Shown here piece after piece: positions 1 through 31,396 of a stretch of 64,000 nt of DNA. The notes beneath the pieces were generated by a model that did not search any database, was not told the origin of the DNA, and worked only from the letters and a program-made list of their open reading frames with translations. Position 1 is the first letter of the stretch. Each line of letters opens with the position of its first letter. This DNA comes from Dehalococcoidia bacterium (lineage in GTDB: Bacteria > Chloroflexota > Dehalococcoidia > Bin125). The stretch spans positions 1,056,001 through 1,120,000 of the forward strand of contig OY820591.1 in NCBI GenBank assembly GCA_963555985.3, read 5' to 3'. A program made the translations under genes and the position numbers.

Positions 1-1139
1 CCGCAGCTATGGTGCTCGCCTGCACTGACTTGGATGAAGCTTCCACCTGGTGGACTCGCTTGTCCGAACTCGTCCAACCCCCAGCATTCGATTGTGCCTA
101 CGTCTGTTACGCCACAGGTGTGGTCGCTGCCTGCGCTGACTTGTATGAAACTTCCATTCGGCGGGGTCGCTTGCCCAGAATCGCCGTACCCCCAACAGAG
201 GACCGCCTCCGCGTCCGTCACTCCGCAACTATGATCCCTGCCTGCGCTGACCTGAGTGAAACGCGCATCTGGAGGACTCGTCCGACCTATTCCGTAATAC
301 CCCCAGCATTCTACTGCTCCTTGGTTCGTGACGCCGCAACTGTGGCCGGTGCCCGCTGCGATCTGAGTAAAGCGTCCGCGTGGTGCGCTCGTTTGACCGT
401 ATCGATCCCACCCCCAGCAGACGATCGTGTCGTCGGTCGTGACGCCGCAATTGTGGTAATCGCCCGCGCTGAGTCGGGAGAAGCGCCCTGCTGGCGGAGT
501 AGCTTGGCCAACTTGATCGCCACCCCAACAGACGGCTGTCCTGTCGGCTGTGAGGCCGCAACTGTGGAGGCCACCTGCGCTGAGCTGAGTGAAGCGTTCT
601 ACTGGTGGAGTCGCTTGGCCAAACCGATCGTTACCCCAACAGACAGCGGTGCCGTCGGCTTTGAGGCCACATGTGTGGTAACCGCCCGTGCTGACTTGGA
701 TGAAGCGTTCTGCTGGTGGAGTCGCTTGGCCAAAGTAATCGTCACCCCAACAGACAACGGTGCCGTCTGCTTTGAGGCCGCATGTGTGATAACCGCCCGT
801 GCTGACTTGGGTGAAGAGTCCTGTTGGCGGAGTCGCTCGGCCATATTGATATTGATCATTGCCCCAACAGGCCACCGCACCGTCGGTCGTGACGCCGCAA
901 CTGCGATAACGTCCTGCGCTAACTTGGATGAAGATACGGCTCGGCGGACTCGCTTGGCCATACTCGTCATTGCCCCAACAGACGACAGCGTTGTCTTCGC
1001 TAACCGCGCAAGTGTGGTTGTATCCTGTGCTCAGCGTCTGACCGGCGAAGTCGGCGCGGGCGCTGTCGCTAGTCATCGTGAGCGCGAAGACGGTTGCGAT
1101 TGCGGCGAACGCTGCCGCGGCGAGCAAGCGAAGAGACAT
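1..1139 (-). CDS. Secreted RCC1/BLIP-II-like beta-propeller repeat protein (3' end runs off window)
   Basis: Absent from the ORF track (no stop in window). Hand translation from ATG at 1139 gives a signal peptide MSLRLLAAAAFAAIATVFALTMTSDSARA, then ~37-aa repeats QVSAGxxHTCGxxxDGxVxCWGxDxYGQAxPP, open to position 1. Confidence 0.9.
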   Translation of the reverse strand, partial: MSLRLLAAAAFAAIATVFALTMTSDSARADFAGQTLSTGYNHTCAVSEDNAVVCWGNDEYGQASPPSRIFIQVSAGRYRSCGVTTDGAVACWGNDQYQYGRATPPTGLFTQVSTGGYHTCGLKADGTVVCWGDDYFGQATPPAERFIQVSTGGYHTCGLKADGTAVCWGNDRFGQATPPVERFTQLSAGGLHSCGLTADRTAVCWGGDQVGQATPPAGRFSRLSAGDYHNCGVTTDDTIVCWGWDRYGQTSAPRGRFTQIAAGTGHSCGVTNQGAVECWGYYGIGRTSPPDARFTQVSAGRDHSCGVTDAEAVLCWGYGDSGQATPPNGSFIQVSAGSDHTCGVTDVGTIECWGLDEFGQASPPGGSFIQVSAGEHHSC

Positions 1140-1188: not shown

Positions 1189-2160
1189 TCAGTTGCCGAT
1201 CCAGTTGTCATAGAGGTAGTTGACTGGATCGACGGCGTAGGAGTCGGACGCGCCATCGAGGATGTCGCAGGCGGGCGTCCCTGGTCGGGACACCTCAACG
1301 TGGACATGCAACCGGAACGTCACTGCGCCGCCCGCGCCCAGGCCGTCAGTGGTGCCGATTCTCTGGTACTGCTCCACGGAGTCCCCGACGCTGAGATGGC
1401 TGGACCTGACCCCGTGCAGGTAGCGTGTGATGTAGCCGTCGGAGTCCTTGATCGCGATCTGGCCGTAGCTGTCGCGGAGGCAGACGATCGTGCCCTCTGT
1501 CAGCGAATGGAAGCCGTGTTTCCTGGTGCCTTGGCTGTAGCGGTAGGAGTCCCAACCCGAATGCCCGCCTTGGTATCCGGCACGTGCATCGCTCGACTCA
1601 GTGCAGTTCCAACCGTCTGGGCAGTTCCCGTAGTCGTTGTAGGCGTATCGCAACTCTTCGCCGAACTGGTGCAGGGCGACTGCGAGGTCCCAGAGCTTGG
1701 TCGACCTAGCGACTTGGCTGGCGGCGGGGCGGGCGATCTCGATCCACGAACTGACCAGCCACTGGTTGACCGTCGCCCGGCGTGGGAAGTACCTCGCCGG
1801 CGGCAGGATGTCCTGATATCCCTCGACACGGAAGCCGAACTCCACGCGACCGTCGGGTGCACGGCGAGCGATGATTCTGCCCGCGTAGCCGTCGCCGAAG
1901 TCGATTTCAGTGCTCTGTAGCCAGTTGTTGTGATCCGGTCCGACGGCGGGGAAGTACCGCGCAGGCGGTAGGTACTGACGCCCGGCAGCGTCCCGCATCC
2001 CGAATTCGGTTCGCCCGTCGGAATTCCGCCGCGCGATGATGCGGACGGAGATCGTGTCTCCCGACGAGGCCTGCGCCTCCACCCTCGGCGTCAGCGGGCT
2101 GCGGACGCCTTCCGACCCACTCCCAAGCACACTCCATGCGATCGCACCCACCAGGACCAT
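1189..2160 (-). CDS. Secreted M23-family metallopeptidase with two N-terminal copies of an unnamed ~50-aa module; true start probably ATG 2240, across a poly-G tract
   Basis: HxGxD (GHSGWD) and HxH (LHVHVEV) M23 motifs; YLH and VGDSVEQYQRIG pattern; VDPVNYL near the end. Confidence 0.8.
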   Translation of the reverse strand: MVLVGAIAWSVLGSGSEGVRSPLTPRVEAQASSGDTISVRIIARRNSDGRTEFGMRDAAGRQYLPPARYFPAVGPDHNNWLQSTEIDFGDGYAGRIIARRAPDGRVEFGFRVEGYQDILPPARYFPRRATVNQWLVSSWIEIARPAASQVARSTKLWDLAVALHQFGEELRYAYNDYGNCPDGWNCTESSDARAGYQGGHSGWDSYRYSQGTRKHGFHSLTEGTIVCLRDSYGQIAIKDSDGYITRYLHGVRSSHLSVGDSVEQYQRIGTTDGLGAGGAVTFRLHVHVEVSRPGTPACDILDGASDSYAVDPVNYLYDNWIGN

Positions 2161-2194: not shown

Positions 2195-2219
2195 CCCCCC
2201 CCCCCCCCCCCCCCCCCCC
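2195..2219. repeat. C25 homopolymer (G25 on the coding strand of the M23 gene)
   Basis: 25 consecutive C counted directly. Confidence 0.9.
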
Positions 2220-5665: not shown

Positions 5666-5893
5666 TCCACGCGGACTTCCTGAGCGCCAACGCCGGGTTC
5701 CAGCGCCACGGCCTGCGACCGCTCATGGCCTGATCGGAGATGGCGACGACGGCTAGCTGCCGGCACCGTCGTTGGTGGCGTTGGAGTCCGGGGGTGTGAG
5801 GGTGGAGGCAGAGCGCGCCCTTTGCCCAATCGGATACTCGTGTTAGGCTCCTGTGCGGCCCTTGTTTCGGTTGGAATACGGAGGAGGTTCTCG

Positions 5894-8194
5894 ATGTCGA
5901 AGGTGTGGGCAGGACAGCATCTGGCGGTTGTTGCCCTCGTCGCTTTGGCGTCCATTGTCACCTGGATAGTTTCGGGCGGGAGTGTTTGGGCTGGCGAAGC
6001 ATCGTCCGTTCTCACGCAAGAGAATGTGGCAACCCGCCCTTCGTCAAGTGAAATCTGTCAAACGTTCGACATCGACCTAAACCGCAGCATGACAGGGCGG
6101 TTGCCTCGAGAAAATTGCGAACACCACTACTATCTGACCCTCACGTCGCGGACCGCTGTCACGATTGACCTGGAATCCGACGACTTCAATGCGTTCCTGC
6201 GCTTGGATGACAATTGGGGGAACCCGATCACATACGACGACGACAGCGGGTCTGGTTCGAATGCGCGACTCGAATTGACCTTGGAACCTGCGACATATGA
6301 GGTCATTGTGCTCAGCGTCGCAGACAGTGGTTCCTACGAGCTCACCGTTGTAGGCCAAGCTGACGCTTCACCTCCATCCCCACCTCCGGCCCCGACTCCT
6401 GCTCCGTCTCCCACGACTTGGAGTTTGGTTGCTACGGGTAGTCCGTCTGGCGGTGGTCGCGTCGAGCATGCGTGCAACTTGGCCCATTGCAATGACAGGA
6501 TCTTTGGAACGAGCGACTATTTCGATGGCGGGACGGCAACCTTGACCGCCCAGCCCAATTCCGGATACCTATTCTCCCATTGGACTGGGGCCGCGACCGG
6601 GAGTAAGAATCCGACCACAGTCCATATGGACAGCGACAAATCTGTGACTGCAGTGTTCGTGCGCGACCGGGCTACGAGATACACGCTGACCGCGACCGCT
6701 GATCCGGCAGACGGTGCCGGTGGATATGTCGATATCGTGGGTGGGACAAAGGTGCGTGACGGCGTCAAAAGTTTCGCCGCAGGTGAAACCGCCTCAATCG
6801 TTGCCCGTGCAAATGCCGGTTGGCGTTTCGTACGCTGGTCGGGCGACACGACCGGAACTAGCGAGTCATTGAGCGTTGCGATGGACAGAAACAAAAACGT
6901 GAAGGCGATCTTTGAAGTCAACCCTTCGACTCGCAGCACATGCTACTTGTTTGGAGTAACACTACCTCACCAAATCAGCGGAGTGCTTGAGGCTAGTGAT
7001 TGTCAGGATACGCTCAGGAGAAACGGCTACTATGCTGACATATATTTCTTTACCTTGAACAAAAAGACTGAAGTTGTAATTAATCTTACCTCTAGTGTCT
7101 TCGACACCTTTCTCCAATTGCGACGGGCTGATGGTGACCGCGGTCGAGTCGCATACAATGATGACATCGAACGTGGGAACTTGAACTCGCGGATTGGTAC
7201 TGAGCTGGAGCCAGGGCAGTACCAAATTATTGCAAGTAGCTATAAGTCCGGAGCTTCGGGCAGATACCAATTGCAGATGGACTTCGTAGCAACCGCCTCG
7301 TTGGACGATCCAGCGGTTCGCCGAGTAATCGCCGAGAAATATCGACCGATCTTGTGGTTTCACGAAGATGAGAAATATTTCCCGGTTGCAGTTGAGGCAA
7401 TGACCCACTACTCAGTCCTCCATTGCGAGAGTGATTTTGTAACCGGCCCACCGGTTGATCCTGACTTGCTCGGCAAATTGGCAACTCGAGGTCTCTGCAA
7501 CTCTGAGAATGATTACTTAGACATGGGTGAATGGCAGAGGATTGTTATGAGAAACAATTGGTGGTTTGTGTTGGAATCCGATAATCCTGGCATCGGCGAT
7601 CCGGTTGTTTACTATCGCGTTGCAGAGATCGATGGCTGGGTTACAGTTCAATATTGGTTGTTTTATGTGTATAACGATGCCCCTTTCAGTAATCTAGTGT
7701 ATGATGGCGATCACGAAGGTGATTGGGAAGGCATACAACTTTGGTTTGCGCCATATGTTGACATAAGTGATATTGCTCTAGGGACTGTGGAACCCAGCGA
7801 AGTTGGTTTTGCGGCGCACGAGAGGGGGACCTACCCGAGTTGGCTTGTCAGCTACGTGGACGGTTACCGTCCTGAGGTGTATGTTGCCGAGGGTACTCAT
7901 GCGTCATATCACGCGCCAGGGGAATGGGCGATAAGAGCGAAGAAGGAGGTGTTGGGTAAAGATCTGGACTTAGGCGACGTGTGTACGGTAGACGATGAGG
8001 CGCGCCGAGGAGTAAAGCTTGAACAGTATAGGCTTGAATCGGTCGCGAATGCTTCGTGGCTGAGCTGGGACGGTCGCTGGGGGGCCGACGGTGGCCCGCA
8101 AGGCCCAGCCTCCGAGCCTAAGCCGCATTGGGAGAAACGTCCAACCCAGATTGAAGATTGGGTTCCGTTGATCCGTTCGTGCAGGCCGGACTAG
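5894..8194 (+). CDS. Secreted mosaic protein: PPC domains, InlB-B/Flg_new-like repeats, C-terminal Vps62/DUF946-like domain
   Basis: GGAGG SD; signal peptide; DDDSGSGSNARL and NDDIERGNLNSRI (PPC); GYLFSHWTG and GWRFVRWSG repeats; QYWLFYVYND..HEGDWEG..VYVAEGTHASY..GRWG..GP (Vps62-like). Confidence 0.8.
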   Translation: MSKVWAGQHLAVVALVALASIVTWIVSGGSVWAGEASSVLTQENVATRPSSSEICQTFDIDLNRSMTGRLPRENCEHHYYLTLTSRTAVTIDLESDDFNAFLRLDDNWGNPITYDDDSGSGSNARLELTLEPATYEVIVLSVADSGSYELTVVGQADASPPSPPPAPTPAPSPTTWSLVATGSPSGGGRVEHACNLAHCNDRIFGTSDYFDGGTATLTAQPNSGYLFSHWTGAATGSKNPTTVHMDSDKSVTAVFVRDRATRYTLTATADPADGAGGYVDIVGGTKVRDGVKSFAAGETASIVARANAGWRFVRWSGDTTGTSESLSVAMDRNKNVKAIFEVNPSTRSTCYLFGVTLPHQISGVLEASDCQDTLRRNGYYADIYFFTLNKKTEVVINLTSSVFDTFLQLRRADGDRGRVAYNDDIERGNLNSRIGTELEPGQYQIIASSYKSGASGRYQLQMDFVATASLDDPAVRRVIAEKYRPILWFHEDEKYFPVAVEAMTHYSVLHCESDFVTGPPVDPDLLGKLATRGLCNSENDYLDMGEWQRIVMRNNWWFVLESDNPGIGDPVVYYRVAEIDGWVTVQYWLFYVYNDAPFSNLVYDGDHEGDWEGIQLWFAPYVDISDIALGTVEPSEVGFAAHERGTYPSWLVSYVDGYRPEVYVAEGTHASYHAPGEWAIRAKKEVLGKDLDLGDVCTVDDEARRGVKLEQYRLESVANASWLSWDGRWGADGGPQGPASEPKPHWEKRPTQIEDWVPLIRSCRPD

Positions 8195-8607: not shown

Positions 8608-9420
8608 ATGACCGACCACGACGACCCGCTCCCGCCCGCCCAACGCCTCAACGCCGACGCCGTCCGCTCCCGCCTTACCACTGCCCAGATCGGGCGCCAA
8701 CTCCACTACCTCCGCGTCACCAACTCCACCATGGACGACGCCCGCCGCCTCGCCGAAAGCGGCTGCCCCCACGGAACCACCGTCGTCGCCGACGAGCAGA
8801 CCGCCGGCCGCGGCACCAAAGGCCGCATCTGGGTCTCGCCTCCCGGCCAGAGCATCCACGCCACCCTCGTCGTCCGTCCCTCCGCCGACCAGCTGAAACG
8901 CCTCAGCATCATCACCCCCGTCGCCGCCTGCGAAGCCGTCGCCCGAACTAGCCCGCTCCAACCCACGATCAAGTGGCCCAACGACATCCAAATCGAACAC
9001 CGCAAACTCGGCGGCATCCTGATCGAAGCCGAGTGGGGCCGCAACCAACCCGACTACGCTCTGATCGGCATCGGCCTCAACGTCAACTTCGATCCCGCGC
9101 CCTGGGCAACCCAAATCGACCGCCCCGCTACCAGCCTCATGATCGAACTCGAAGCCCGCCAACAGCGCGAACCCGTCCTCGCCGAACTCCTCAACGCCTT
9201 CGAGACCGCCTACGAAGCCTGGGACAGCGAAGAACTTCACCAAGCCTGGAAATCCCGCCTCAGCACCCTCGGCCGCGACGTCCGCATCATCGGCCCCACC
9301 GGCGACGAGTTCGAAGGCCAAGCCGAAGACGTCAACCGCGACGGCGCCCTCCTCATCCGCAAGCCGGACGGAAATCTAGTCCCAGTCATCGCCGGCGAAG
9401 TCACCCTCCGCGATGCCTAA
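8608..9420 (+). CDS. birA: Biotin--[acetyl-CoA-carboxylase] ligase
   Basis: STMDDA, QTAGRG.KGR.W.SP, IKWPNDI, KLGGIL, GIGLNV; no N-terminal HTH. Confidence 0.95.
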   Translation: MTDHDDPLPPAQRLNADAVRSRLTTAQIGRQLHYLRVTNSTMDDARRLAESGCPHGTTVVADEQTAGRGTKGRIWVSPPGQSIHATLVVRPSADQLKRLSIITPVAACEAVARTSPLQPTIKWPNDIQIEHRKLGGILIEAEWGRNQPDYALIGIGLNVNFDPAPWATQIDRPATSLMIELEARQQREPVLAELLNAFETAYEAWDSEELHQAWKSRLSTLGRDVRIIGPTGDEFEGQAEDVNRDGALLIRKPDGNLVPVIAGEVTLRDA

Positions 9421-12400
9421 TCGAACCCCACAGGCGCAGGCAGCTGCACCGCCGCATCCTCCGCCTCTGGTGGGCGAACAACCCAGAGCACCTGCCCCGC
9501 CTCCAAGACGAGCGGCGGCCCTGGCAGGGCGTAGTAAGACCACGCGCCGTCGCCCCCAATCCACGCCCCTTGCACCGATCCGTCAAGCAACGTGGCCAAC
9601 TCCGACAAGAGCGTGCCCTCCGCGCCCGCAAAGGAAAGCTCGCTCAGGCCAGGACCAAGAACCATCTCAACAGGTTCAATCGCCGCAATCACGAGCAACG
9701 ACGGTCCGCGCAGCCGCACCTGGAGCCCCGTGCCAACCAAGGCAAGCGGGGCTTCGCTCCACTCCTGCGCAAGCAGATCGAAGGCAAAGGCTCGATAAGG
9801 CCCGCTAGCCTCGGGTACCGGAATCCGCACAGTCAACTCGACCGCATGGTCAATCGGCGTGCCGCGGCGATCTGAGACATCGATCCGCCACGCATCGACA
9901 AATCGGTTGCGGCCCTCGCCCGCCCATGCAGTACTCCACGCGCGAGGGAAGAACTCCTCCAGCCGAGCAAACCGCTCAACTCGTTCGACCTGCAGCCGCC
10001 ACATCTCCAGCTTCGATTCCGCCGCCAGATTCGCGTTCAGCCGAACACTCGCGGCGACACCGCCCTGCGCGATCCGCGTTAGTTCTGGTTCATGCTCGAG
10101 TTCCTCATCCGGCCAAGCGATCGCCGCGCTCAGTCCGTCGCCGGACAACTCGCGCAAGAGCTCCCGGCGCAACGCTGCATCGTCGCCCTCCGCCCGCAGC
10201 CGCGCCGCCTCAATCCGCTCTGACCACCCGTCTGCCCGCTCGGTCAGATTCACAACCTCAATTGCCGCCGACTCCATAAGCTTGTCGTCTAAATCTCTGA
10301 CGCCGCTGCCGTCCTCGGGCGCGAGATAGCGCAGCTCAACAGCGTCGAGCGCTGTGATCCGCTCAGCAAGCGTGAGCAGCAAGGCAGACGACCGCCACTC
10401 CAGCGACGACACCTCGAGCCGTCGCCGGCCCGCAATCACTAAGAACTGCTCTGCATCCGTCAGTCCCGGTTCGATTCGCTGATCGAATTCGACCTCAATG
10501 GCGGCGGCATCCGCACTGGCGGACACCATTGAAGGCGGCGTCTGCGTCACGTTGAGCGGCACGATCACGGAGCTTGCCACCCGATGTCCCGCCAAACCTG
10601 CCAAGCCGCCTCTCTCGCGGGCCAGATAGATCAGCGCCGGCTGGTCTTCGTCGCGGAGCGGCTGCGCAAGCTCAAGAAGCACCGTGCTGCCGCCGACAAT
10701 CACTTCGGCGATATCCAACTCCCGATCGTCCCCGAGCGACACAACCCACTGGCTGCGCGTGGAGCCAAGATCGAGCAGCGGCTGATCGAACAGGATCAGC
10801 ACCATCTCACGGCTGCCGTAGGCCGCGGTCATTCGCGGGGCTTGGCCCAACTCGTTGACTGCGACTCGAAATGGGGCGACCGCACCTTCGCTCCCACGCA
10901 GAGCCTCGCCGTCATAATGCAGAACAAGATCGTCGCGCGGCCCTGCCCCGGGAGCAGCCAATCTGAGCGACAAACGCGCACCGCTGATGTTCGTCACCGC
11001 AGTGACGTCCGGTGCGTGGGTCAGCTCGAATGCGCTCGCTTCGGGCAATGGAACAGCGGAGAGCGCCTGATCGAAGACGATGGCCAACTCGCGCAGATTC
11101 ACTGTCGCCGACAGCGGACAAGGAGCGGCTCGGTCGATGAGCCGGTTGAGCGAGAACGCTGCCAAGCCGCCTCCGCCTGTATAAGTGACCGCCACGGCAT
11201 CACCCAAACAGACGACGCGATCGAGGGTCAGCGCGACTCGCCCTTCGTCGATCGAGACGCTCGCAACCGTACCCTCCTCCCCGCCAACAGCGGCATTCCA
11301 GTTCTTCTTCGTCACGCTCGCAGGAGGCGTTTCAAAGTCGAGAAGCAGCTTCTTGCCTTCCGCTCGCAGACAGCTCAATCCCGCCGCCGCTGCAATCAGA
11401 TTGCTGACTCTGATCTCAAACGAGACGACCGCATATCCCTTGCCGTCCAACCATGGCTGCGTTTGAGCACTGCGGTAGACCAAGCGCACTCCAACGCATT
11501 CCGGTATCGGACGATCCAGAAGGAGCGTGAGCGACGAATCATCGACAGCCGCGCTCTGTAGCGCCAGCTCGACCTCACCTGCGTAGACGACGAATGCGCC
11601 CAGCGAGGGCGCACTGCCGCTCGCCAGAGCAGCGTCGAATGTCATGTTGATTTGCCGTCGATTGGATGTATCCACCGCCGCCGATACGGGAGCTGCCGCG
11701 ATCCGGTTGGCGACCGAAAACGCTTCGAATTGCTTTACCCGATTGTGTGATTCCGAAGTGTCGCGCAATTCCCATTCGGGACGCTCTGGCACGTGGGGGC
11801 GAGTGTACGAAGTCGTGATGACCTCGGTGCTGGACGCCTGTCCGGCTAGTGTCAATATGACGGCGCCGCTCTCGATCTCGACCTGCGTCAGCGCAATCCC
11901 CGCTTCTCCTGCGAAGACCTCGAACCATACCGCCGGCTCAGCGATGCCGTCCGGCGCGCAGATCGCGTCATACAGCTCAGCCGGCTCGTTCTCTTTCACC
12001 CACTCACAACTGGGGGGCGGCACGGCCTGTTCATCAAGCGCCTGATCGAACTGAATCGTCAACGTTTGCGCCTGAATCCACGCATGCTCCGCGATCGGTG
12101 CGACGTCAGTCCGATTCTCTACAGCAATCGTGAAGCTCGCGACCAGATTTGGAAGATCGTCGTCCTGGAGACTGTCTGTTTTGGGCGGGTTGTACGCTAG
12201 TGTCACTGCTTCGCCTTCGCGCAAGGGCCGGTCGTTGGTCAGCGTCAGAGTCAAGACGCTGCCGACGATCTCCTGATTGTCGACAACCGCGCCGCCACTG
12301 AGCTCGAATCTGTCGTTCGGCGGCTTCTTGCCCGGATTGAGATCCTGATCGAACACGACCGTGATCTCCGTACCCGTCTCGTTGGAGGCGGCGGCCACCG

Positions 12401-15400
12401 GAAACGGCGCATAGTCGGTCTCATTTTCGATCGAGGCGCTGAAGCCGGCGACGAGATTGCCGGATCCATCCCGAAGGCCATTCGTGTCGGGAACCGTATA
12501 CGTCAGGCTCAGATTGGCGTCTTCCACGACGCTCTGTTCCAGGGAAAGCGTTGCCGCAGCGCCTGCAATCGTCACGCTGTCTACCGCAGGGGCGCCGCTA
12601 CCCAAGTCGAACGCTGCCGTCTCAGGAGTGTGCGCTGTGGACAGCGGCTGGTCGAACGTGACCGTGACCGCCTCTCCATCGGCAACGGCGCCGACGAATA
12701 CGGGTGCGGTGTCGGTCAGATTGCTCAGTTGGTACTGGTCGATCTGGGCGCGATTTTGTCCTGGATCGTCGTCCCGGATCAAAGCAGAACCGTACGAAGG
12801 ATCGTAATCCAGCGAGACGGTATCCAGCTCATGGACAGCTGTGTCCAACGTGATCTGCAACCTGCCTGCGCCGCCCGAAGCGTCGTTCGAAAGCGCAATC
12901 GCGTCCACCGATACGGCTGCGCGGATGCCGCTGATCGTGAAGTGATCCGTTGGAATCGCTCTGGTCTCCAGGTACAGCGACTGGTCGAAGTCGAGTTTGA
13001 TCGCCGTGCCATTCACCGTCCCCGACAGCGGCACTGGCGCGGTGTCGGTGTGATTCTCGAGCTCGATCGCGCTGATGCTGACCGAATTGCCTTCAGGGTC
13101 CGCCATCCGCGTGGATGCTGTGGTTGGTGCGTACGTCAGGGAAAGCTCCTCGTCTTCGGCCAGCGCCGGACTGACTGTCAGCTTGACCACGCCCTGACCA
13201 TTGATGTTTTCGAGGCTCGCGGCGGTGACCTGATGCGCTGACGAACTTGTGCTGAATTCGGATGTGGATGGCTGACGCGCCAGCTCAAGCGTCTGATCGA
13301 AGACCAACCGGACACTCGTCAGCGCAGCCAATGCCTCAATCAGCACTGGAGGCGTGTCCGTCTGATTCGCCACGCTCAGACGGTGTCGCGCATCATCGGA
13401 GTCGAAACCAAGCACGTGGAGCGAATTGGCTCCGCGCAGCCGCGTGTTGCCGTCATCCGCCGGCCGATGCCGAATGCGCACATCAGCGTCTTCGATGAGA
13501 GCGCTATCCAGGGTCAAGGAGACGAGCTGCGACGAGAGCGCCACCGTCAGCGGTGGGGTCGCGTCATCAATCACGAACGAGCTTGTCAGCGGAATAGCCT
13601 CCTGATCGAGCGCGCTGTCGAAGGCGATCGCCAGTTCGCGTCCGTTCGCAGTCGCCGATATTGGCAGAGGAGGACCGGCGTGTTCGGCCTCGAAGGCGGA
13701 GAAACTCGCCGTGAGATTCTCGCTCAGGTCGCGCAAGCCGTAATCGGAGTCTTGCGTATACGTCGCGGTGACGACCTCCCCCCTCCGCGCGACACTCGAC
13801 AACCGCAGCACCACCTGAACTCCACTGACTTTGACTGCGGTCACATCTCGCTCGACGTCGGCGACCGTGACGCTGAAGGCGCTGATCCCGGGATAAACGC
13901 CTTCATTGAGCGTCTGGTCAAAGAAAATCGTGATACCAGCGCCGGAAACTGTAGCCCGCTGAGGCGCCGGAGCCGTATCGGTCTCATTCGTGATCGCCAG
14001 CGTGAATGCCGGGACAGCCGTACCGGTCTGGTCAATCAGATTTCCGGTTCGCGCCGGAGCGTACGCCACAGTAGCCAACTCGGATTCCCGAAAATCAGGT
14101 GATACCTGCACCGAGACGGTTGATCCGCTCACCTCAAGTGATGTCGGGATGGCCGTCGTTCCGCTGAGCGTGAACTGGGCGATGTCCACATCAGCGGTTT
14201 CGTCCAGGGGCTGATCAAATGTCAGCGTCAGCGTCGAGCCATTCGCGGTGGCGCTGGTCGCATTGGTGGGTGTTTCGGTTTCGTTCGTCAGGGAGAGCTT
14301 CGCAATCGTTGCTGCATTCCCTTCCGGATCGACAATCCCCGAATCCCCGGACGGAGTGAAGGTGAGCGTGACCGAAACGCCTTCGCGCACGCTTGCAGAG
14401 AGCCTGAGCACCAACACCCCCCGCGTCGTCTCGCTGTCGTTGGCAAGCGAGACCGATGAAACGCTGCGGCTCGGAACGAGACTGAAACCGGAGGCGTCCG
14501 GCTGTGTATCAAGATCAAGGTCCTGGTCGAAGCGAAGTTCGACTCGGTCTCCGTTGATCTGCGCGGACAGCACTCGCGGCGACGTATCGACCTGATTGTC
14601 AATCGCGCGCTCTGTCCACGCCTCCACCTGAAGCTTGCCCTGATCTAGATCCCTCAGGCGCGCCGCCGTTGGGTCTTTCGGAGGCGTATAGGAGAGCTTG
14701 CCCGCATCTGTTTCGTGCAACGTCGGAGAGAGCGTGAGCGTAACTGCGGAGCCGCTGACCGAGACCTCCGTGGCCGCGGCCTTGGTCCCTGTCAGCGTGA
14801 AGCTCGAAGCCGACGGTGTGCCGGCCGTGTCTTCGCGCAGCGTCTCGGAGAACCGCAGGCTCAGCGAGCCTCCGTCTCCCTCGGCGATCACACTTGTGAG
14901 TCGAGGAGCGTCGTCGGTTTCATTCGTGACGGCGAGCGAAAATGCCGCTAGCGCAGTGCCGGTCGTATCGACCAGTGCGTCAACATTGGGCGGGCTGTAA
15001 CTCACCGTCAGGGCGTCTCCATCAGTAAGCGCTGGTGAGATCGTCAATGTCACTACGGCGCCTTTGATCGCGACAGTTTGGACGGTCGCGGCGGGAACGG
15101 AGACGGTGAACGACGAGGCAGCCGGAACGACTTCTTCGTTGAGGGACTGATCGAACGTGATTCGTATGGCGCCCCCGTTTCCGATAGCGCGAGTAGCGGT
15201 TGTCGGCGTGTCCGTCCGATTCGTGAGCGCGAGGTCTTGGATGCTTGCCGCATTGCCTTCGGGATCGACGATCTGGGAGTCGCCATCTGGGCTGAAGTTC
15301 AGCGTCACTGTGTCGCCCTCTCGGACAGCCTTCGCCAACGTGAGTTCAAGCAGGCCCCGGCTACTCGATCCGCTGTTCGTCAGCGACACGGAGGACATCG

Positions 15401-18179
15401 ATCTGGACGGCGACAAGCTGAACCCTGAGGTTGCCGGCTGCTTCGTGAGGTCCAGATCTTGGTCGAACTCGATCCGTACCGCTGTCCCGTTCACCTCGCC
15501 TGATACGACGCGCGGCGCCGTATCGACCTGATTGTCGATCGTTTCGCCAGTCCAATCTGCAACTGCCAGCGTTCCCTGATCGGCGTCCCGCAGCCGCGGC
15601 GATCCCTGATCGGTCGGCTGTGCATAGCCGATGGACGCGGAGTCCGTCTCGTGCAGCGCCGGGGAGACGGCGAGCACGACTTCCCGACCACTCATCGACA
15701 CACCGCTCACCTGCGCCGCGGTTCCGCTGAGCGTGAAGGTCGTCCCTGCTGGTGTCGACGAGGCGGCCGCGCTCAGTGGTTCGGAGAATCGGAGCGTGAT
15801 CTGCGACCCACTACCCGTCGCGCTCGCGCTGACCAGGCTCGGCGCGTCGTCGGTCTGATTGACGACCGCGACATCGCTGAACGCCGCTACTGCGAGGCCG
15901 TTTTGCCCATTGAGCGGGGCGTCGGACGACGGCGCGAACGTCAAGCTCATGCTGGCCCCGTCGGACACGGCTGCGGCCAACTTGAGTGTGACAGTGCGCG
16001 TCGCAATCGTGAGCTCGGAGACGGACGAATCTGAGCCGTCCACCTTGGCGCTGAACGCGCTCGTTGAGACGGACGAGTTCGAGTCGAGATCAGCATCGAA
16101 GAGGATGCTGAGGGTGTCGCCGTTGACCGTCAGACTGGTGGGAGCCGGGGCGCTGACGGTCAGGTTCGTAACCGCAAAAGCGCTGATGTCCGCCACCTCT
16201 TGTGCGCCGCCGGCGCGTCGCAGCGGCTTGGAGTCGGGCGCGGTGTAGCTCAGAGCAATTGTCTCTCCTTCGACCACGCTGCTTGAGAGAGTCAGCGCCG
16301 CCGTGCGATCGCTGATCGTCAACGAAACGACCGTCGCCTCCGTCCCGGTCAGCGCGAACGCTGTGCTCGCCGGTATCTCCGTGGACTCAAGCGGGCGATC
16401 GAACACCAGGAGCAGGATGTCGCTTGCTACGTTGGCGCTGCTGAGGCGAGGCACGCCGTCGGCGCTATTGGCGACCGCGTAGTCACTCCAGGCCGCCACC
16501 GGATACTGGCCGTCGGCGCTTGAGAGGCGGGCGGCGTTGGCTCCGGTTGCAGGCGTATAGCCAAGCGTGATCACTTCGCCCGTATCGGCCAAGGGGCTGA
16601 GTGTGAGGCTGACTTCGGAACCGGAGACGCTAACACTCGTGATCGTCGCGCTCGTCCCGGTCAGAGTGAATGTGCTTGCCGCCGGCGTGCCGGCGCTGGT
16701 ATCTAGGAGCGAGTCGGAGAAACCCAGTGTGAGCGTGGTCCCCGCCGCGTTGATGCCGGCAGTGCTCAAGGTCGGGGCCGGGTCGGAGGTGTTGTTGACC
16801 ACCGCCTGATTCGAGAACGTCTCCACATCCCTGCTGTTGCGCCCGACCAGTTTGTGCGGGCTCGCTGATGGTTCCGTGTAAGACAGCGTGATCACATCAG
16901 TGTGAGACACCGCTGCGGAGAGCGTCAGCGTGACCACTGCTGCGGTAAACGCTGTTGCGCTCACGCTCAGTCCGCTGACGCCGCTGACCGCGAAGGCGCT
17001 CGCTTCCGCAACCGACCGCAGCGGCAGATCGAACGTTAAGGTCAGGGTGGAGCCGTCCACCGCCGCCGCCGACACTACGGGCGCTGTTTTCGGCGTTTCA
17101 TGGACTACTTCAAGACTGCTGAAGCGGTCCACGCTGTGCGTCTTCTCGCGATCCCGCAGGGACGGCGAATCTCCCGTCGCCTCGAAGTAGAAGAAGAATG
17201 TGTCCACACTGATCGGGACGATTCCGGACAGGCTCAACGTCACCGTTGAACCCTCAATCGACACTCCGGTGACGCTTGGTGGGAAGGTCACCTGATTGCC
17301 GAAACGCCAGGAATCGGTTGTCGGCACACTTGCCGGATCGAGCGCTTGATCGAAAGTGACCGTGATCTGTTCGTAGAGGGCGGTCCCGGCAGTCGCGACA
17401 GGGGCGGTGTCGGTGTGATTCGTGACAGAAAGCTCCGTCCAGCTTGGGACAAGCTGCCTCCCTTGATCGGCATCGCGCAGTTCTTTGTCATAATCCGCAG
17501 AAGAGCGATCGTAGGACAGCAACACCTGCTCTCCTTGCGTCAGTCCCCGTCTCGATTGCAACAGGATCGTGACCGTATCTGAACCGAATCGAACATCGTT
17601 GATGACCGGGTTGCTCTTTGCAGCCTCGATCTCGAACGCATCCACCGAAGACCACCAACTAATCGCTCCCAAGTCCTCGCAGAACGTGATGATGATCCTG
17701 TCACCGGCGGTGTTCGTGACGATGCTCTCAACCGCAGGCGGCAAATCCGTCTGATTCGTAACCGCTTGATCTGAGAATGCAGCCACCGATTCACCGTTTG
17801 CTCCGAGCAGCGGCCGCTGCGCCGGAACCTCGTAACTCACTACCACCGCCGACCGATCGCAATCCGGGTCGGGCGCGCTCTCACTGAGCGTCAGCGTGAC
17901 AGCTGTCCCTGCAACAGCGACGCTGGAGACCGATCTAGCCTCTGTGCCCGCCGCGACGCTGAATGCGCTCGCCGCTGGGATCGAAGAGGTATCCAGCGAG
18001 GCGTCGAAGCTCAGCGTCAGCGATGTTCCTGTAACCGAAGCCGAGGTTACCGACGGTATCGTTGCTGCCTCCGCTTGCTCAACTGTGAGCGAGCACATCG
18101 CGCGTGCCCAGACAAGAACAAGACTGAGGCAGAACAGCCAGGTGAGCGCAGAGGCATTGACCTGGCGAAAGGCAGCCAA
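9417..18179 (-). CDS. Giant (~2900 aa) surface protein with tandem SwmB-type Ig-like repeats
   Basis: Over 20 repeats of ~100 aa (AxVxGxxLTLTFDxxLDxxxxPxxSAFxV..VTLTL..V.LSYTxP..LxDxxGNxxxxF..VTN). Signal-like N-terminus; TTG 18179 chosen as start, just after the upstream gene's stop. Confidence 0.88.
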   Translation of the reverse strand: MAAFRQVNASALTWLFCLSLVLVWARAMCSLTVEQAEAATIPSVTSASVTGTSLTLSFDASLDTSSIPAASAFSVAAGTEARSVSSVAVAGTAVTLTLSESAPDPDCDRSAVVVSYEVPAQRPLLGANGESVAAFSDQAVTNQTDLPPAVESIVTNTAGDRIIITFCEDLGAISWWSSVDAFEIEAAKSNPVINDVRFGSDTVTILLQSRRGLTQGEQVLLSYDRSSADYDKELRDADQGRQLVPSWTELSVTNHTDTAPVATAGTALYEQITVTFDQALDPASVPTTDSWRFGNQVTFPPSVTGVSIEGSTVTLSLSGIVPISVDTFFFYFEATGDSPSLRDREKTHSVDRFSSLEVVHETPKTAPVVSAAAVDGSTLTLTFDLPLRSVAEASAFAVSGVSGLSVSATAFTAAVVTLTLSAAVSHTDVITLSYTEPSASPHKLVGRNSRDVETFSNQAVVNNTSDPAPTLSTAGINAAGTTLTLGFSDSLLDTSAGTPAASTFTLTGTSATITSVSVSGSEVSLTLSPLADTGEVITLGYTPATGANAARLSSADGQYPVAAWSDYAVANSADGVPRLSSANVASDILLLVFDRPLESTEIPASTAFALTGTEATVVSLTISDRTAALTLSSSVVEGETIALSYTAPDSKPLRRAGGAQEVADISAFAVTNLTVSAPAPTSLTVNGDTLSILFDADLDSNSSVSTSAFSAKVDGSDSSVSELTIATRTVTLKLAAAVSDGASMSLTFAPSSDAPLNGQNGLAVAAFSDVAVVNQTDDAPSLVSASATGSGSQITLRFSEPLSAAASSTPAGTTFTLSGTAAQVSGVSMSGREVVLAVSPALHETDSASIGYAQPTDQGSPRLRDADQGTLAVADWTGETIDNQVDTAPRVVSGEVNGTAVRIEFDQDLDLTKQPATSGFSLSPSRSMSSVSLTNSGSSSRGLLELTLAKAVREGDTVTLNFSPDGDSQIVDPEGNAASIQDLALTNRTDTPTTATRAIGNGGAIRITFDQSLNEEVVPAASSFTVSVPAATVQTVAIKGAVVTLTISPALTDGDALTVSYSPPNVDALVDTTGTALAAFSLAVTNETDDAPRLTSVIAEGDGGSLSLRFSETLREDTAGTPSASSFTLTGTKAAATEVSVSGSAVTLTLSPTLHETDAGKLSYTPPKDPTAARLRDLDQGKLQVEAWTERAIDNQVDTSPRVLSAQINGDRVELRFDQDLDLDTQPDASGFSLVPSRSVSSVSLANDSETTRGVLVLRLSASVREGVSVTLTFTPSGDSGIVDPEGNAATIAKLSLTNETETPTNATSATANGSTLTLTFDQPLDETADVDIAQFTLSGTTAIPTSLEVSGSTVSVQVSPDFRESELATVAYAPARTGNLIDQTGTAVPAFTLAITNETDTAPAPQRATVSGAGITIFFDQTLNEGVYPGISAFSVTVADVERDVTAVKVSGVQVVLRLSSVARRGEVVTATYTQDSDYGLRDLSENLTASFSAFEAEHAGPPLPISATANGRELAIAFDSALDQEAIPLTSSFVIDDATPPLTVALSSQLVSLTLDSALIEDADVRIRHRPADDGNTRLRGANSLHVLGFDSDDARHRLSVANQTDTPPVLIEALAALTSVRLVFDQTLELARQPSTSEFSTSSSAHQVTAASLENINGQGVVKLTVSPALAEDEELSLTYAPTTASTRMADPEGNSVSISAIELENHTDTAPVPLSGTVNGTAIKLDFDQSLYLETRAIPTDHFTISGIRAAVSVDAIALSNDASGGAGRLQITLDTAVHELDTVSLDYDPSYGSALIRDDDPGQNRAQIDQYQLSNLTDTAPVFVGAVADGEAVTVTFDQPLSTAHTPETAAFDLGSGAPAVDSVTIAGAAATLSLEQSVVEDANLSLTYTVPDTNGLRDGSGNLVAGFSASIENETDYAPFPVAAASNETGTEITVVFDQDLNPGKKPPNDRFELSGGAVVDNQEIVGSVLTLTLTNDRPLREGEAVTLAYNPPKTDSLQDDDLPNLVASFTIAVENRTDVAPIAEHAWIQAQTLTIQFDQALDEQAVPPPSCEWVKENEPAELYDAICAPDGIAEPAVWFEVFAGEAGIALTQVEIESGAVILTLAGQASSTEVITTSYTRPHVPERPEWELRDTSESHNRVKQFEAFSVANRIAAAPVSAAVDTSNRRQINMTFDAALASGSAPSLGAFVVYAGEVELALQSAAVDDSSLTLLLDRPIPECVGVRLVYRSAQTQPWLDGKGYAVVSFEIRVSNLIAAAAGLSCLRAEGKKLLLDFETPPASVTKKNWNAAVGGEEGTVASVSIDEGRVALTLDRVVCLGDAVAVTYTGGGGLAAFSLNRLIDRAAPCPLSATVNLRELAIVFDQALSAVPLPEASAFELTHAPDVTAVTNISGARLSLRLAAPGAGPRDDLVLHYDGEALRGSEGAVAPFRVAVNELGQAPRMTAAYGSREMVLILFDQPLLDLGSTRSQWVVSLGDDRELDIAEVIVGGSTVLLELAQPLRDEDQPALIYLARERGGLAGLAGHRVASSVIVPLNVTQTPPSMVSASADAAAIEVEFDQRIEPGLTDAEQFLVIAGRRRLEVSSLEWRSSALLLTLAERITALDAVELRYLAPEDGSGVRDLDDKLMESAAIEVVNLTERADGWSERIEAARLRAEGDDAALRRELLRELSGDGLSAAIAWPDEELEHEPELTRIAQGGVAASVRLNANLAAESKLEMWRLQVERVERFARLEEFFPRAWSTAWAGEGRNRFVDAWRIDVSDRRGTPIDHAVELTVRIPVPEASGPYRAFAFDLLAQEWSEAPLALVGTGLQVRLRGPSLLVIAAIEPVEMVLGPGLSELSFAGAEGTLLSELATLLDGSVQGAWIGGDGAWSYYALPGPPLVLEAGQVLWVVRPPEAEDAAVQLPAPVGFD

Positions 18180-18187
18180 TCGCGCCG

Positions 18188-18964
18188 CTAGCGCCCCGAC
18201 CAGTTCGGGGCGCGCTTCTCCACGAACGCGAGCGGCCCTTCTTTGGCGTCCTCGGAGTTGAGCACGACGCGGCTGACCCACTGTCCGGTGCGGTAGGACT
18301 CGTCGATCATCAGTTGCCGCCACTGATGGGCCATGAACTTGGTGCCCTCAACCGCCAGGGGCGCGTTTTCGGCGATCATTTCGGCGATCGCGATCGCTCG
18401 CGGCAGCAGCTGATCGGGTTCGAGGATTTCGCGGATCAGGCCCATGCGCAGGGCTTCTGCGGGCGAAATGCGGTCGGCGGTGAGCATGATGTAGAGCGCG
18501 TCGCCGATCGGCAGCATCCGCGCGAGGTGGTGAATGGCGTAGCCGGGCATGATCCCGCGCTTGACCTCGAACAGTCCGAAGTAGGCTTCCGTCGAAGCGA
18601 TCCGAATGTCGCAATCGAGGGCGCGTTCGAGGCCGCCGGCCAGACAGAGGCCGTTGATGGCGGCGATGAACGGCTTGCGGCAGCGCGCGAAGGGCATCGA
18701 ATCATTCAGATCGAAGCCCATCGTGTCGCGCAGACCATCGCGCGACTGATTCTGCTCGTTCATCTCTTTGAGGTCGGTGCCGGCTGAGAAGGCGCGCCCG
18801 GTACCGGTCAGGATCGCGGCGCGGATCTCCGGGTCGTTCTCCAGATCCTCGACCGCCTCGATCGTCAAGCGGCGCAGATCGCGGCCGAGCGCGTTCAGGC
18901 GGTGGGGACGGTTCATCGTCAGCACGGCGTAGTGGCCGAACTTTTCGTAGATCAGGTCAGGCAT
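18188..18964 (-). CDS. Enoyl-CoA hydratase/isomerase family protein
   Basis: NRPHRLNAL, AFSAGTDL, IAAINGLCLAGGLE, FGLFEVKRGI. Confidence 0.93.
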   Translation of the reverse strand: MPDLIYEKFGHYAVLTMNRPHRLNALGRDLRRLTIEAVEDLENDPEIRAAILTGTGRAFSAGTDLKEMNEQNQSRDGLRDTMGFDLNDSMPFARCRKPFIAAINGLCLAGGLERALDCDIRIASTEAYFGLFEVKRGIMPGYAIHHLARMLPIGDALYIMLTADRISPAEALRMGLIREILEPDQLLPRAIAIAEMIAENAPLAVEGTKFMAHQWRQLMIDESYRTGQWVSRVVLNSEDAKEGPLAFVEKRAPNWSGR

Positions 18965-22349: not shown

Positions 22350-23555
22350 CTACGGCGTGAACTCGATCTCGCTGCTGCGCAGCCAGTGCCCGACCGTTGC
22401 GTTCGTGGGGAAGAATCGCGCTTGAGGCAGGATTCGCTCGCCGGAGGCGACGAAGCCGAACTCGATCCGGCCTCCAGCGGTCAGTCTCGCGGCGATCCGG
22501 CCCCAGTCTTCCACGTCACTGCTGAGCAGCCAGACGCCCACGCGCGCGGTTGTGGGGAAGTATCGGCGCGTCGGGAGGATCAGCTCGCCGTCGCTCGTGC
22601 GGAATCCGAACTCCACTCGTCCGTCCGCGCCCAATCGCGCCACGATTCTGCCGACGACCGCCGGGTTTTCGAACGCGACCGCGTCGTCGGGCGAACCCGT
22701 GGGCGGCGGATCGTCCGCCGGCTCTGTGCCTCCCCAGCAGATCGCACCACCCGCGGCAACGACGCCGCAGGACCAGTCGCGGCCGGCGCTGATCTGGGTG
22801 AAGCGCGTCTGCGGCGGCTCGTGCTCGCCCGCGCCCCAACAGGACGCCGTACCGTTCGCGGCCAATGCGCAGGTATGGGACTCGCCCGCGCTGACCGACT
22901 CGAAGCGACCACTCGGCGGCGAGGCTTGGCCGAATGCATTGTCGCCCCAACAGGCGATCCGTCCATTCGTGCGCACGGCGCAGGCGTGCGATGTCGCCGC
23001 GCTGACCGAGGTGAATGTTCCACTTGGGGTTTGCAGCTCGCCGACGCGATCCCAACCCCAGCAGAAGAGCGCGCCGGCCGTGGTCACGCCGCAGCTGTAG
23101 AGGTGTCCCGCGTCGATGCTGCGGTACGTCTCTGCCGGCACCTCGAGGAAGCCCCAGTCGATCCCGCTGCCCCAACAGACGCCCGCGCCGGACTCGCGAA
23201 TGGCGCAGCTATGCGACGCGCCCGCGCCAATCTGGGTGAATCGTCCCGGCGGCGCGTCTATCTGCCGCGATTCGTTCCGCCCCCAGCATCGAATCTCGCT
23301 GTCGTCGGTCAGGGCGCAGGTGAAGTCGTCGCCGACCGCGACCGCGCTGTAGCTGCCGGACGGCACGTTGAGCTGCCCGTATTCGTTGCCGCCCTCGCAC
23401 TCGAGCGAGCCGTCGTCGTAGAGGTAACAGACGTGGCTGTCGCCGGCGCTAACGGCGACGATCGTTCCGTCTGCGTGGGCCGATGATCCCAGCGTCCAGA
23501 TCGCCGACAGCACAACCACTAACACCAACGCCGCGCCAGGAACCCGATGTCGCAT
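22350..23555 (-). CDS. Secreted RCC1/BLIP-II-like repeat protein with two C-terminal copies of the unnamed ~50-aa module
   Basis: Signal peptide; about seven VSAGxxHxC..CWG repeats; Pro linker; two GRIxARLxxxGRxEFGF modules. Confidence 0.88.
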   Translation of the reverse strand: MRHRVPGAALVLVVVLSAIWTLGSSAHADGTIVAVSAGDSHVCYLYDDGSLECEGGNEYGQLNVPSGSYSAVAVGDDFTCALTDDSEIRCWGRNESRQIDAPPGRFTQIGAGASHSCAIRESGAGVCWGSGIDWGFLEVPAETYRSIDAGHLYSCGVTTAGALFCWGWDRVGELQTPSGTFTSVSAATSHACAVRTNGRIACWGDNAFGQASPPSGRFESVSAGESHTCALAANGTASCWGAGEHEPPQTRFTQISAGRDWSCGVVAAGGAICWGGTEPADDPPPTGSPDDAVAFENPAVVGRIVARLGADGRVEFGFRTSDGELILPTRRYFPTTARVGVWLLSSDVEDWGRIAARLTAGGRIEFGFVASGERILPQARFFPTNATVGHWLRSSEIEFTP

Positions 23556-30673: not shown

Positions 30674-31396
30674 ATGTCGCAACGAGCCAAACTGTTGGGT
30701 GTCGCCGCAATCGGCGTCATTATCGGAGCGGCGGCGCTGGCCGTCGTCGCCGCGATGGGGCATGGATCCGAGGTTGAGATCCAGGCGCGGCGGCACGCCG
30801 ACGGGCGGGTCGAGGTGGCGCTCAAGGACAGCGACGGACAGCGTCATCTGCCGGAACAGCGATTCCTCGCGCCCGACGCGACCGAGGGAGTCTGGCACTC
30901 CAGCACGCCGCTAGAGATCGCCGACTCCGAGGCTGTAGATCCGGCCGCCGTGGGCGCCACCGCGACCGCGCGGATGCACGGCCCCGACGGGACCGAGATG
31001 GGCCAGGTCACGCTGATCCAGGGACCGCGCGGCGTCCTCATCCAGGCGCGGCTGAGCGGCGTGCCGGAGGGTTGGCATGGATTCCACATCCACGAAACGG
31101 GATCCTGCGAGCCGGACTTCTCGGCCGCCGGCGGCCATTACAACCCGATGGGCATCGGCCACGGCGTCCTGCATGAGGACGGGCATCACCCGGGCGACAC
31201 GGTCAACGTCTACGCCCACGCCGACGGCACGGCCAACGCCGACCAGTACACGGTCGATGCGACGCTGGGTTCGGGCGCGACCACACTGTTCGACGCCGAC
31301 GGCTCGGCGATCATCGTCCACGAGGGCCCGGACAGCTACGGCGCAGACCCCGGCGCGGGCGCGCGGATCGCCTGCGGCGTGATCACGCTGAACTGA
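30674..31396 (+). CDS. sodC: Secreted Cu/Zn superoxide dismutase with an N-terminal unnamed ~50-aa module
   Basis: HGFHIHE, GGHYNP, HPGD, IIVHEGPD, GARIACGVI; signal peptide. Confidence 0.9.
   Translation: MSQRAKLLGVAAIGVIIGAAALAVVAAMGHGSEVEIQARRHADGRVEVALKDSDGQRHLPEQRFLAPDATEGVWHSSTPLEIADSEAVDPAAVGATATARMHGPDGTEMGQVTLIQGPRGVLIQARLSGVPEGWHGFHIHETGSCEPDFSAAGGHYNPMGIGHGVLHEDGHHPGDTVNVYAHADGTANADQYTVDATLGSGATTLFDADGSAIIVHEGPDSYGADPGAGARIACGVITLN

Follow-up and report, generated by a model that had tools for sequence, protein, structure and literature searches.

A short protein module that recurs in the 64,000-nucleotide stretch of DNA analysed here (the window) probably keeps proteins attached to the surface of the cell in a manner so far undescribed. 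This role is probable because the module sits where relatives of its carrier proteins use a lipid or sortase anchor, and the sequence patterns make it likely, in our judgement, that it acts as a non-covalent cell-envelope retention domain. The module has the features of the surface-display class: it occurs on exported proteins, on unrelated cargo and near chain termini.

An earlier note on this DNA had named five copies of a ~50-aa module on an M23 peptidase, an RCC1-like protein and a Cu/Zn superoxide dismutase (SOD). A coordinate check and a profile search confirm all five copies on these three proteins (Table 1) and make them part of a larger set of all-beta modules, which are longer than the note had stated (~57 aa, about 55–59 aa). 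The cargo domains are unrelated, as had been claimed: Pfam assigns them to Peptidase_M23 (E 4e-6, just under its Pfam cut-off), RCC1_2 and Sod_Cu. A second RCC1-like gene, a 687-aa ORF at C1:1055082-1057142, enters the window with its 5′ part, and its two C-terminal modules lie just outside, before the window start.

Table 1. Module copies, cargo genes and an associated homopolymer run in the window.
Feature	Position	Strand	Basis or remark
Second RCC1-like cargo gene, 5′ part	3..1139	-	Pfam, profile search
M23-family peptidase gene (cargo); domain at residues 217-295, ~nt 1276-1512	1189..2160	-	Pfam
Module copy 2, in tandem with copy 1	1729..1890	-	Profile search
Module copy 1, N-terminal in the M23 protein	1891..2055	-	Profile search
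25-base G run upstream of the M23 gene	2195..2219	-	Putative slippage switch
RCC1-like beta-propeller protein gene, with signal peptide	22350..23555	-	Pfam
Module copy 4, RCC1-like protein, ends at the stop codon	22353..22511	-	Profile search
Module copy 3, first of the C-terminal tandem in the RCC1-like protein	22500..22661	-	Profile search
Cu/Zn superoxide dismutase gene (cargo)	30674..31396	+	Pfam Sod_Cu
Module copy 5, single, directly behind the Cu/Zn SOD signal peptide	30764..30925	+	Profile search

Iterated from the five copies, an HMM converged on 47 copies in 36 ORFs of contig C1; two duplicates lie on small contigs. The weakest of these ORFs scored E 2e-7 and the next match E 0.03, and the best of 46,485 reversed decoy ORFs reached E 0.1, which places the module far above chance. 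Of the 36 ORFs, one is a remnant of 48 aa that follows a frameshifted gene, and another is frameshifted from its signal peptide. Position counts were made with an alignment and profile of 46 copies (A1) that covers 35 ORFs. The module comes first after the hydrophobic N-terminus in 30 of the 35, is C-terminal in four and internal in one, and two ORFs carry an extra internal copy; the claim that it always lies at a terminus thus holds for most carriers rather than for all. Signal peptides were assessed from hydropathy and AxA motifs, with cleavage read from motifs only. An N-terminal hydrophobic segment is present in 34 of the 35 ORFs, the 35th being the one frameshifted from it, and no membrane segment lies inside the module. 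Six module positions (R5, E17, P35, R38, W49 and S52) are conserved at 90–98% among 852 public copies. These public copies have a median net charge of +2, and the corresponding value outside the module in their proteins is −3.4 per 57 aa; modules of this genome are not basic on balance (net charge −7 to +5).

The same profile retrieves 1,721 public protein clusters at 50% identity. Among the best 150 of the 1,721 representatives, 127 have an N-terminal hydrophobic segment, 147 carry the module near a terminus, one has a lipobox-like motif and none has an LPxTG tail. The module is thus not limited to the three first-named genes, and its carriers are mostly exported proteins with diverse cargo. 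By Pfam, module cargo on C1 comprises 16 Peripla_BP_4 proteins and one iron-type and one branched-chain-type binding protein, together with a Cache protein, a trypsin, an AhpC/TSA protein, two RCC1 proteins, the SOD, the M23 peptidase and several orphans. For most of the 16 Peripla_BP_4 cargoes, the regions listed contain no permease. Cargo in 54 of the best 150 public representatives, scanned by Pfam, includes RCC1, LRR, FN3, cadherin, CAP, trypsin, thioredoxin and SLH.

The strongest indication of what the module does comes from families in which it alternates with a covalent anchor. In homologues of three families the module and covalent anchors are mutually exclusive, with one exception in this genome, where C1:3053073 combines a typical lipobox with a weak module; two further module proteins of the genome fit a loosely defined lipobox. 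All 41 family genomes encode the iron-ABC binding protein in a single copy, and here it shares an operon with a permease and an ATPase. In 34 of the 41 genomes (32 by regex, two by eye) a cysteine ends its hydrophobic stretch and there is no module; in the other seven, including this genome, it has two modules, a cleavable-looking signal with an AxA-Q site and no such cysteine; none of the 41 has both. The module form falls among the lipoproteins (1–2 changes). The binding protein of a monoderm importer must stay by its permease and is commonly a lipoprotein, as SBPs of Gram-positive bacteria commonly are, according to PMC7530257. The domain is present where the anchor disappears, so envelope retention is the simplest job for the module.

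The Cu/Zn SODs repeat this pattern: among 23 homologues, ten carry the module without a lipobox and eight a lipobox without the module, the rest being four with a bare N-terminal membrane segment and one fragment. The module-form SODs are one clade. The third family consists of small secreted proteins with a PPPHxFxG beta-domain; 17 of its 35 distinct members end in two modules, 15 in an LPxTG-like motif followed by a membrane segment and a basic tail, three in other ways and none in both. These sorting tails weakly resemble NCBIfam GVDTG_CTERM, below its cut-off. Members with the LPxTG tail and those with modules belong to paralogous subfamilies that occur together, and this genome has three paralogues with sorting-like tails. 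Together, the swaps represent only about 3–4 independent evolutionary events. Two other families largely keep their lipid anchor: SBP_bac_5 proteins on C1 have a lipobox in 27 of 28 cases and a module in none (two small-contig matches left out), and six of the seven Peripla_BP_6 proteins of this genome are lipoproteins without a module, the seventh carrying one. A sortase is present in 40 of the 41 genomes. A count of LPxTG tails as the simple inverse of the module count proved not clean; 33 of the 41 genomes match it, and genus g7 has both.

Several observations adjoin these families. The 28 SBP_bac_5 genes on C1 are a large expansion, mostly of Tat-type lipoprotein peptide-binding proteins with long Gln/Ala-rich linkers, and several lie in a tandem array near C1:2606000-2622000. 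One genome (G024) has 19 matches to the LPxTG-type tail, mostly on ~210–250-aa proteins, an expansion of sortase substrates in its own right; the remaining 40 genomes have 0–6. Another (G507) encodes a bacterial alpha-2-macroglobulin with an N-terminal module pair (L159:14770-18000). Bacterial alpha-2-macroglobulins are often lipoproteins, and this pair may therefore be a further swap. By a crude census, many apparently secreted proteins of the present genome have neither module nor lipobox.

The earlier note had proposed that the module tethers enzymes to the envelope or to a scaffold such as a giant repeat protein. The tethering idea draws sequence-based support from the anchor swaps in three families. 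The giant repeat protein was rejected as the scaffold: it has no module, nothing was found in favour of the idea, and its SWM-repeat relatives P0005 and P0015 carry four modules as cargo. In the window this giant SWM/Big_5 repeat protein (9417-18323) looks secreted, as does a PPC / InlB-B-repeat / Vps62 protein (5822-8194), which likewise lacks the module. A sorting role, also raised in the note, is unlikely, since the module serves at either terminus.

The swaps could have another meaning if the module were not an anchor at all, with uncleaved N-terminal hydrophobic segments acting as the tether and the module as a spacer, pairing or export-assisting domain. The four SOD homologues with a bare membrane segment fit such an arrangement, as do some Peripla_BP_4 and SOD signals that lack a crisp cleavage site. 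We regard it as very improbable, given that the module-bearing iron-binding proteins show clear AxA-Q sites and that PPPH-family members with a sortase tail and those with a module tail start with one kind of signal, the modules lying at the C-terminus, far from it. The module's position at either end also speaks against a sorting signal.

The module is undescribed in the libraries and literature searched. It has no significant match in Pfam, NCBIfam, PHROGs or PDB sequences; the best stray matches are E 0.049 in Pfam and E 0.027 in PHROGs (one member each) and E 0.71 against PDB sequences. Pfam and NCBIfam place no LysM, choline-binding, CWB2, SH3b/GW, ChW, LGFP or dockerin family on the module region. 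In Pfam, no A1 member matches SLH, CWB2, choline-binding, LysM, SH3b/GW, ChW or LGFP at E up to 10, and the SLH profile (PF00395) in particular matches 0 of 46 modules. Searched plasmids, and viral contigs searched with P0080, gave no match, and no RNA holder is listed for the module. A first ESM Atlas search returned no usable match and a second only matches (under 0.9) to ~110–130-aa hypothetical clusters, one with CarboxypepD_reg in 12% of its members, probably as an N-terminal domain. A literature search, mostly of open-access papers, found no description of the module, which supplement tables of sponge MAGs could carry unnamed.

An AlphaFold2 model of copy 2 (pLDDT 93) predicts a beta hairpin with short strands and no helix. 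Its best matches are not significant (Foldseek PDB E 0.86; BFVD E 0.32), nor is the best VIA match (Z 3.6, rmsd 3.3, 52 aligned), and SH3 and chromodomain rows appear only at E > 2. No SLH entry is listed in the fold searches, which by the tool's own note leaves SLH possible. A second prediction, from a single sequence without an alignment, was weak (pLDDT 57). By the tools' own notes, blank fold searches do not make a predicted fold new. The claim that the module matches no recognised family is borne out by the sequence searches, with no confident hit to a characterised Pfam domain. Should the fold be new, it would add a structural solution to wall anchoring.

By analogy, the module most likely works like SLH, CWB2 or CBM37 and is a member of none of these. 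SLH is a non-covalent wall anchor with a helical three-prong fold, usually in three copies, and it binds a pyruvylated secondary wall polymer. Like SLH (PF00395), the module is short, repeated and placed at either end of exported proteins with unrelated cargo; unlike SLH, it lacks the sequence match, is modelled free of helices and usually occurs in one or two copies. CWB2 (PF04122), choline-binding repeats, LysM, SH3b/GW, ChW, LGFP and CBM37 are lineage-expanded surface-display modules, and the present module resembles them in being shuffled onto enzymes, adhesins and binding proteins, but has no Pfam match to them at E up to 10 and no significant fold match. It occupies the role of lipoprotein (Lgt/Lsp) and sortase LPxTG anchors in close homologues; whereas these are covalent and bound to one fixed terminus, the module is a folded domain used at either end. 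T9SS CTD, PEP-CTERM and LPxTG signals are strictly C-terminal, unlike the module with its N-terminal place in 30 of 35 ORFs and its lack of a membrane segment. Dockerin and cohesin offer the likeness of a small, often duplicated terminal module on diverse cargo, but the module has neither their Pfam match nor an EF-hand-like motif.

Surface protein retention in monoderm Chloroflexota is poorly known, and no SLH domain was found in 31 genomes of this family (controls positive); elsewhere, four proteins carry SLH and the module on the same chain. The present genome encodes Lgt, four penicillin-binding proteins (PBPs) and a sortase. PMC10284905 describes Dehalococcoidia as monoderm, with peptidoglycan ancestral, retained in some orders and lost in others. 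Genomes with at least six module matches occur only in the PBP-positive lineages f1, f109 and f16. The module is not expanded in the PBP-positive lineages f101, f44 and f80, so that expansion is seen in three of six PBP-positive versus none of four PBP-less lineages, numbers too few for a test. Eighteen module-positive genomes in four families have no PBP match and hold two copies each, one of them four. In the seven of these 18 that were checked, the pair is carried by an ~860-aa PPC protein, with an additional cargo in one genome; the low-copy genomes with PBPs that were examined likewise have it at the end of this protein. The expanded use of the module, as read from these genomes, fits a wall-linked ligand, yet the module is kept without peptidoglycan. 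Peptidoglycan alone is doubtful as the ligand because the 18 PBP-less genomes keep two to four copies, nearly all of them on a single protein family in those checked. The PBP pattern, the non-expanding lineages and the charge data lead us to favour as candidate ligand a surface polymer, either peptidoglycan-linked or another glycan.

On these grounds we propose the following sequence of events. The protein would be exported by Sec and its signal peptide cut, as the AxA motifs suggest. The folded module would then bind an outer polymer of the monoderm cell, most likely peptidoglycan-linked or another surface glycan, through its conserved Arg/Glu/Trp/Pro surface, with tandem pairs often binding jointly. 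In so doing it would take the place of a lipid anchor or sortase tail, a replacement seen as a genomic pattern, and would hold binding proteins, SOD, proteases and proteins with eukaryote-like repeats (RCC1, LRR, FN3, cadherin) to the cell surface. Horizontal transfer may have carried the module between Chloroflexota and Acidimicrobiia that live together, probably in association with an animal (sponge), and domain shuffling may have multiplied it in some walled lineages. As a soluble, well-predicted domain of 57 aa, it is a potential direct probe of the ligand and envelope chemistry of uncultured, probably sponge-associated Dehalococcoidia and Acidimicrobiia, and its profile would mark their surface-displayed proteome, including many eukaryote-like repeat proteins thought to be host-facing.

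Protein–protein docking is an alternative to polymer binding that we consider unlikely. Here the module would bind a cell-attached partner or other modules, in a cohesin–dockerin-like manner or as a self-assembling coat, and candidate partners are a two-TM protein, an S-layer protein or the conserved PPPH-domain protein of ~250 aa. Of the 23 genomes in genera g1, g7 and g8, 22 encode the two-TM protein, each with a single strong match, and the ~250-aa PPPH protein is matched in 25 of 25 genomes of four high-copy genera. Docking is also consistent with the presence of at least two copies in 421 of 454 public module proteins (a sample biased to multi-copy matches), with the best fold matches of the low-confidence single-sequence model, which cover both modules as one unit (Z ≤ 6.1, not significant), and with the persistence of the module in PBP-less genomes. 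However, the two-TM protein was not found with the query used in the high-copy genus g3 (0/2), a protein receptor would need to travel with the module across phyla, and no Ca-binding, dockerin-like or EF-hand-like motif was seen in the module.

The two-TM protein (G000:C1:1981531-1982115; L015:3532-4116) is 195 aa long, with two membrane segments around a degenerate module pair, and has a diverged neighbour paralogue in some genomes. Its possible roles are those of a receptor or, provided the module binds the wall, of a membrane-to-wall tether. An adjacent pair of ~250-aa secreted proteins (G000:C1:649748-651388; L002) each combines a beta domain with two modules, and a 575-aa family of Acidimicrobiia type also occurs as adjacent paralogues (OXI26_00500/00505). 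Both sets are possible structural coat proteins.

The earlier note's description of the module as lineage-specific was too narrow, given that it occurs in Chloroflexota of several classes and in proteins labelled Acidimicrobiia. Within the family, 18 of 24 other genomes have a match, with 21–69 matches per genome in genera g3, g7 and g8 and 2–9 in g5 and g9; none was found in g2, g4, g6 and g10 in the family genome search. Across the class, where no more than 21 candidates per genome were scored, 44 of 301 genomes have a match, and 26 of these belong to seven other families. A phylum sample of 401 genomes added seven strong matches from two further families and two marginal ones, giving a patchy distribution over at least eight Dehalococcoidia families and two families of other Chloroflexota classes. 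Three proteins labelled Acidimicrobiia by NCBI, with labels that come from MAG records, carry a C-terminal module pair, and 96 of 101 newly listed homologues of this protein type have the module. One metagenome locus of the type has no diagnostic taxonomic marker, and its neighbours are 25–48% identical to proteins of the present genome. A tree of 145 modules has too few columns to give a direction of transfer. The ~860-aa secreted PPC-domain protein with its C-terminal module pair is common to eight Chloroflexota families across classes (L032-L036, L039, L173-L182), lineages without PBPs included. It is 40–63% identical between most families or classes (~75% between f101 and f6) and, with this identity and no shared neighbours, looks horizontally spread.

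A patchy distribution across phyla would also be expected if the module stuck proteins to a polymer of an animal host, such as collagen or glycan of the sponge mesohyl, or to a communal biofilm matrix, rather than to the cell's own wall. Modules of the Acidimicrobiia-labelled proteins are 52–58% and those of SLH-bearing proteins 58–68% identical to the best family-f1 copy, and the module is found together with SLH and persists in genomes that lack PBPs. Much of the cargo consists of eukaryote-like repeats, and the genome has four matches to GPP34, a family mainly found in sponge and coral symbionts according to PMC11706023; together these suggest a sponge or coral symbiont. We nevertheless find matrix binding quite improbable. 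An ABC-importer binding protein on a host matrix could not feed its permease, yet it is such a protein that swapped its lipid anchor for the module. The module also replaces a sortase tail, and the habitat itself is deduced from the genome. Retention on the cell's own envelope thus stays the preferred reading.

A bolder extension of envelope retention, which we hold to be doubtful, is that the module is a cross-phylum surface plug of an animal-associated community, with a fold unmatched in the PDB searches and with a common glycan, or the module itself, as its ligand on unrelated co-dwelling bacteria, walled or not. If so, enzymes, binding proteins and eukaryote-like repeat proteins, or their genes, would be displayable by different species of the community.

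The M23 gene departs from the general presence of signal peptides that had been claimed for all three first-named proteins. Read from its ATG at 2160, the ORF has only a truncated signal without the basic n-region, and its hydrophobic stretch continues in frame further upstream, behind the 25-base G run. An upstream ATG at 2240, which GGAG precedes by 7 bases, does not share the M23 signal frame as assembled. The contigs of three runs have no listed differences, a comparison that cannot test the G run. C1 has 14 G/C runs of at least 9 bases, and three of them are located in module genes, at the 5′ end (C1:1058195, 2017496 and 3097255), and runs at these places suggest slippage switching of surface proteins.
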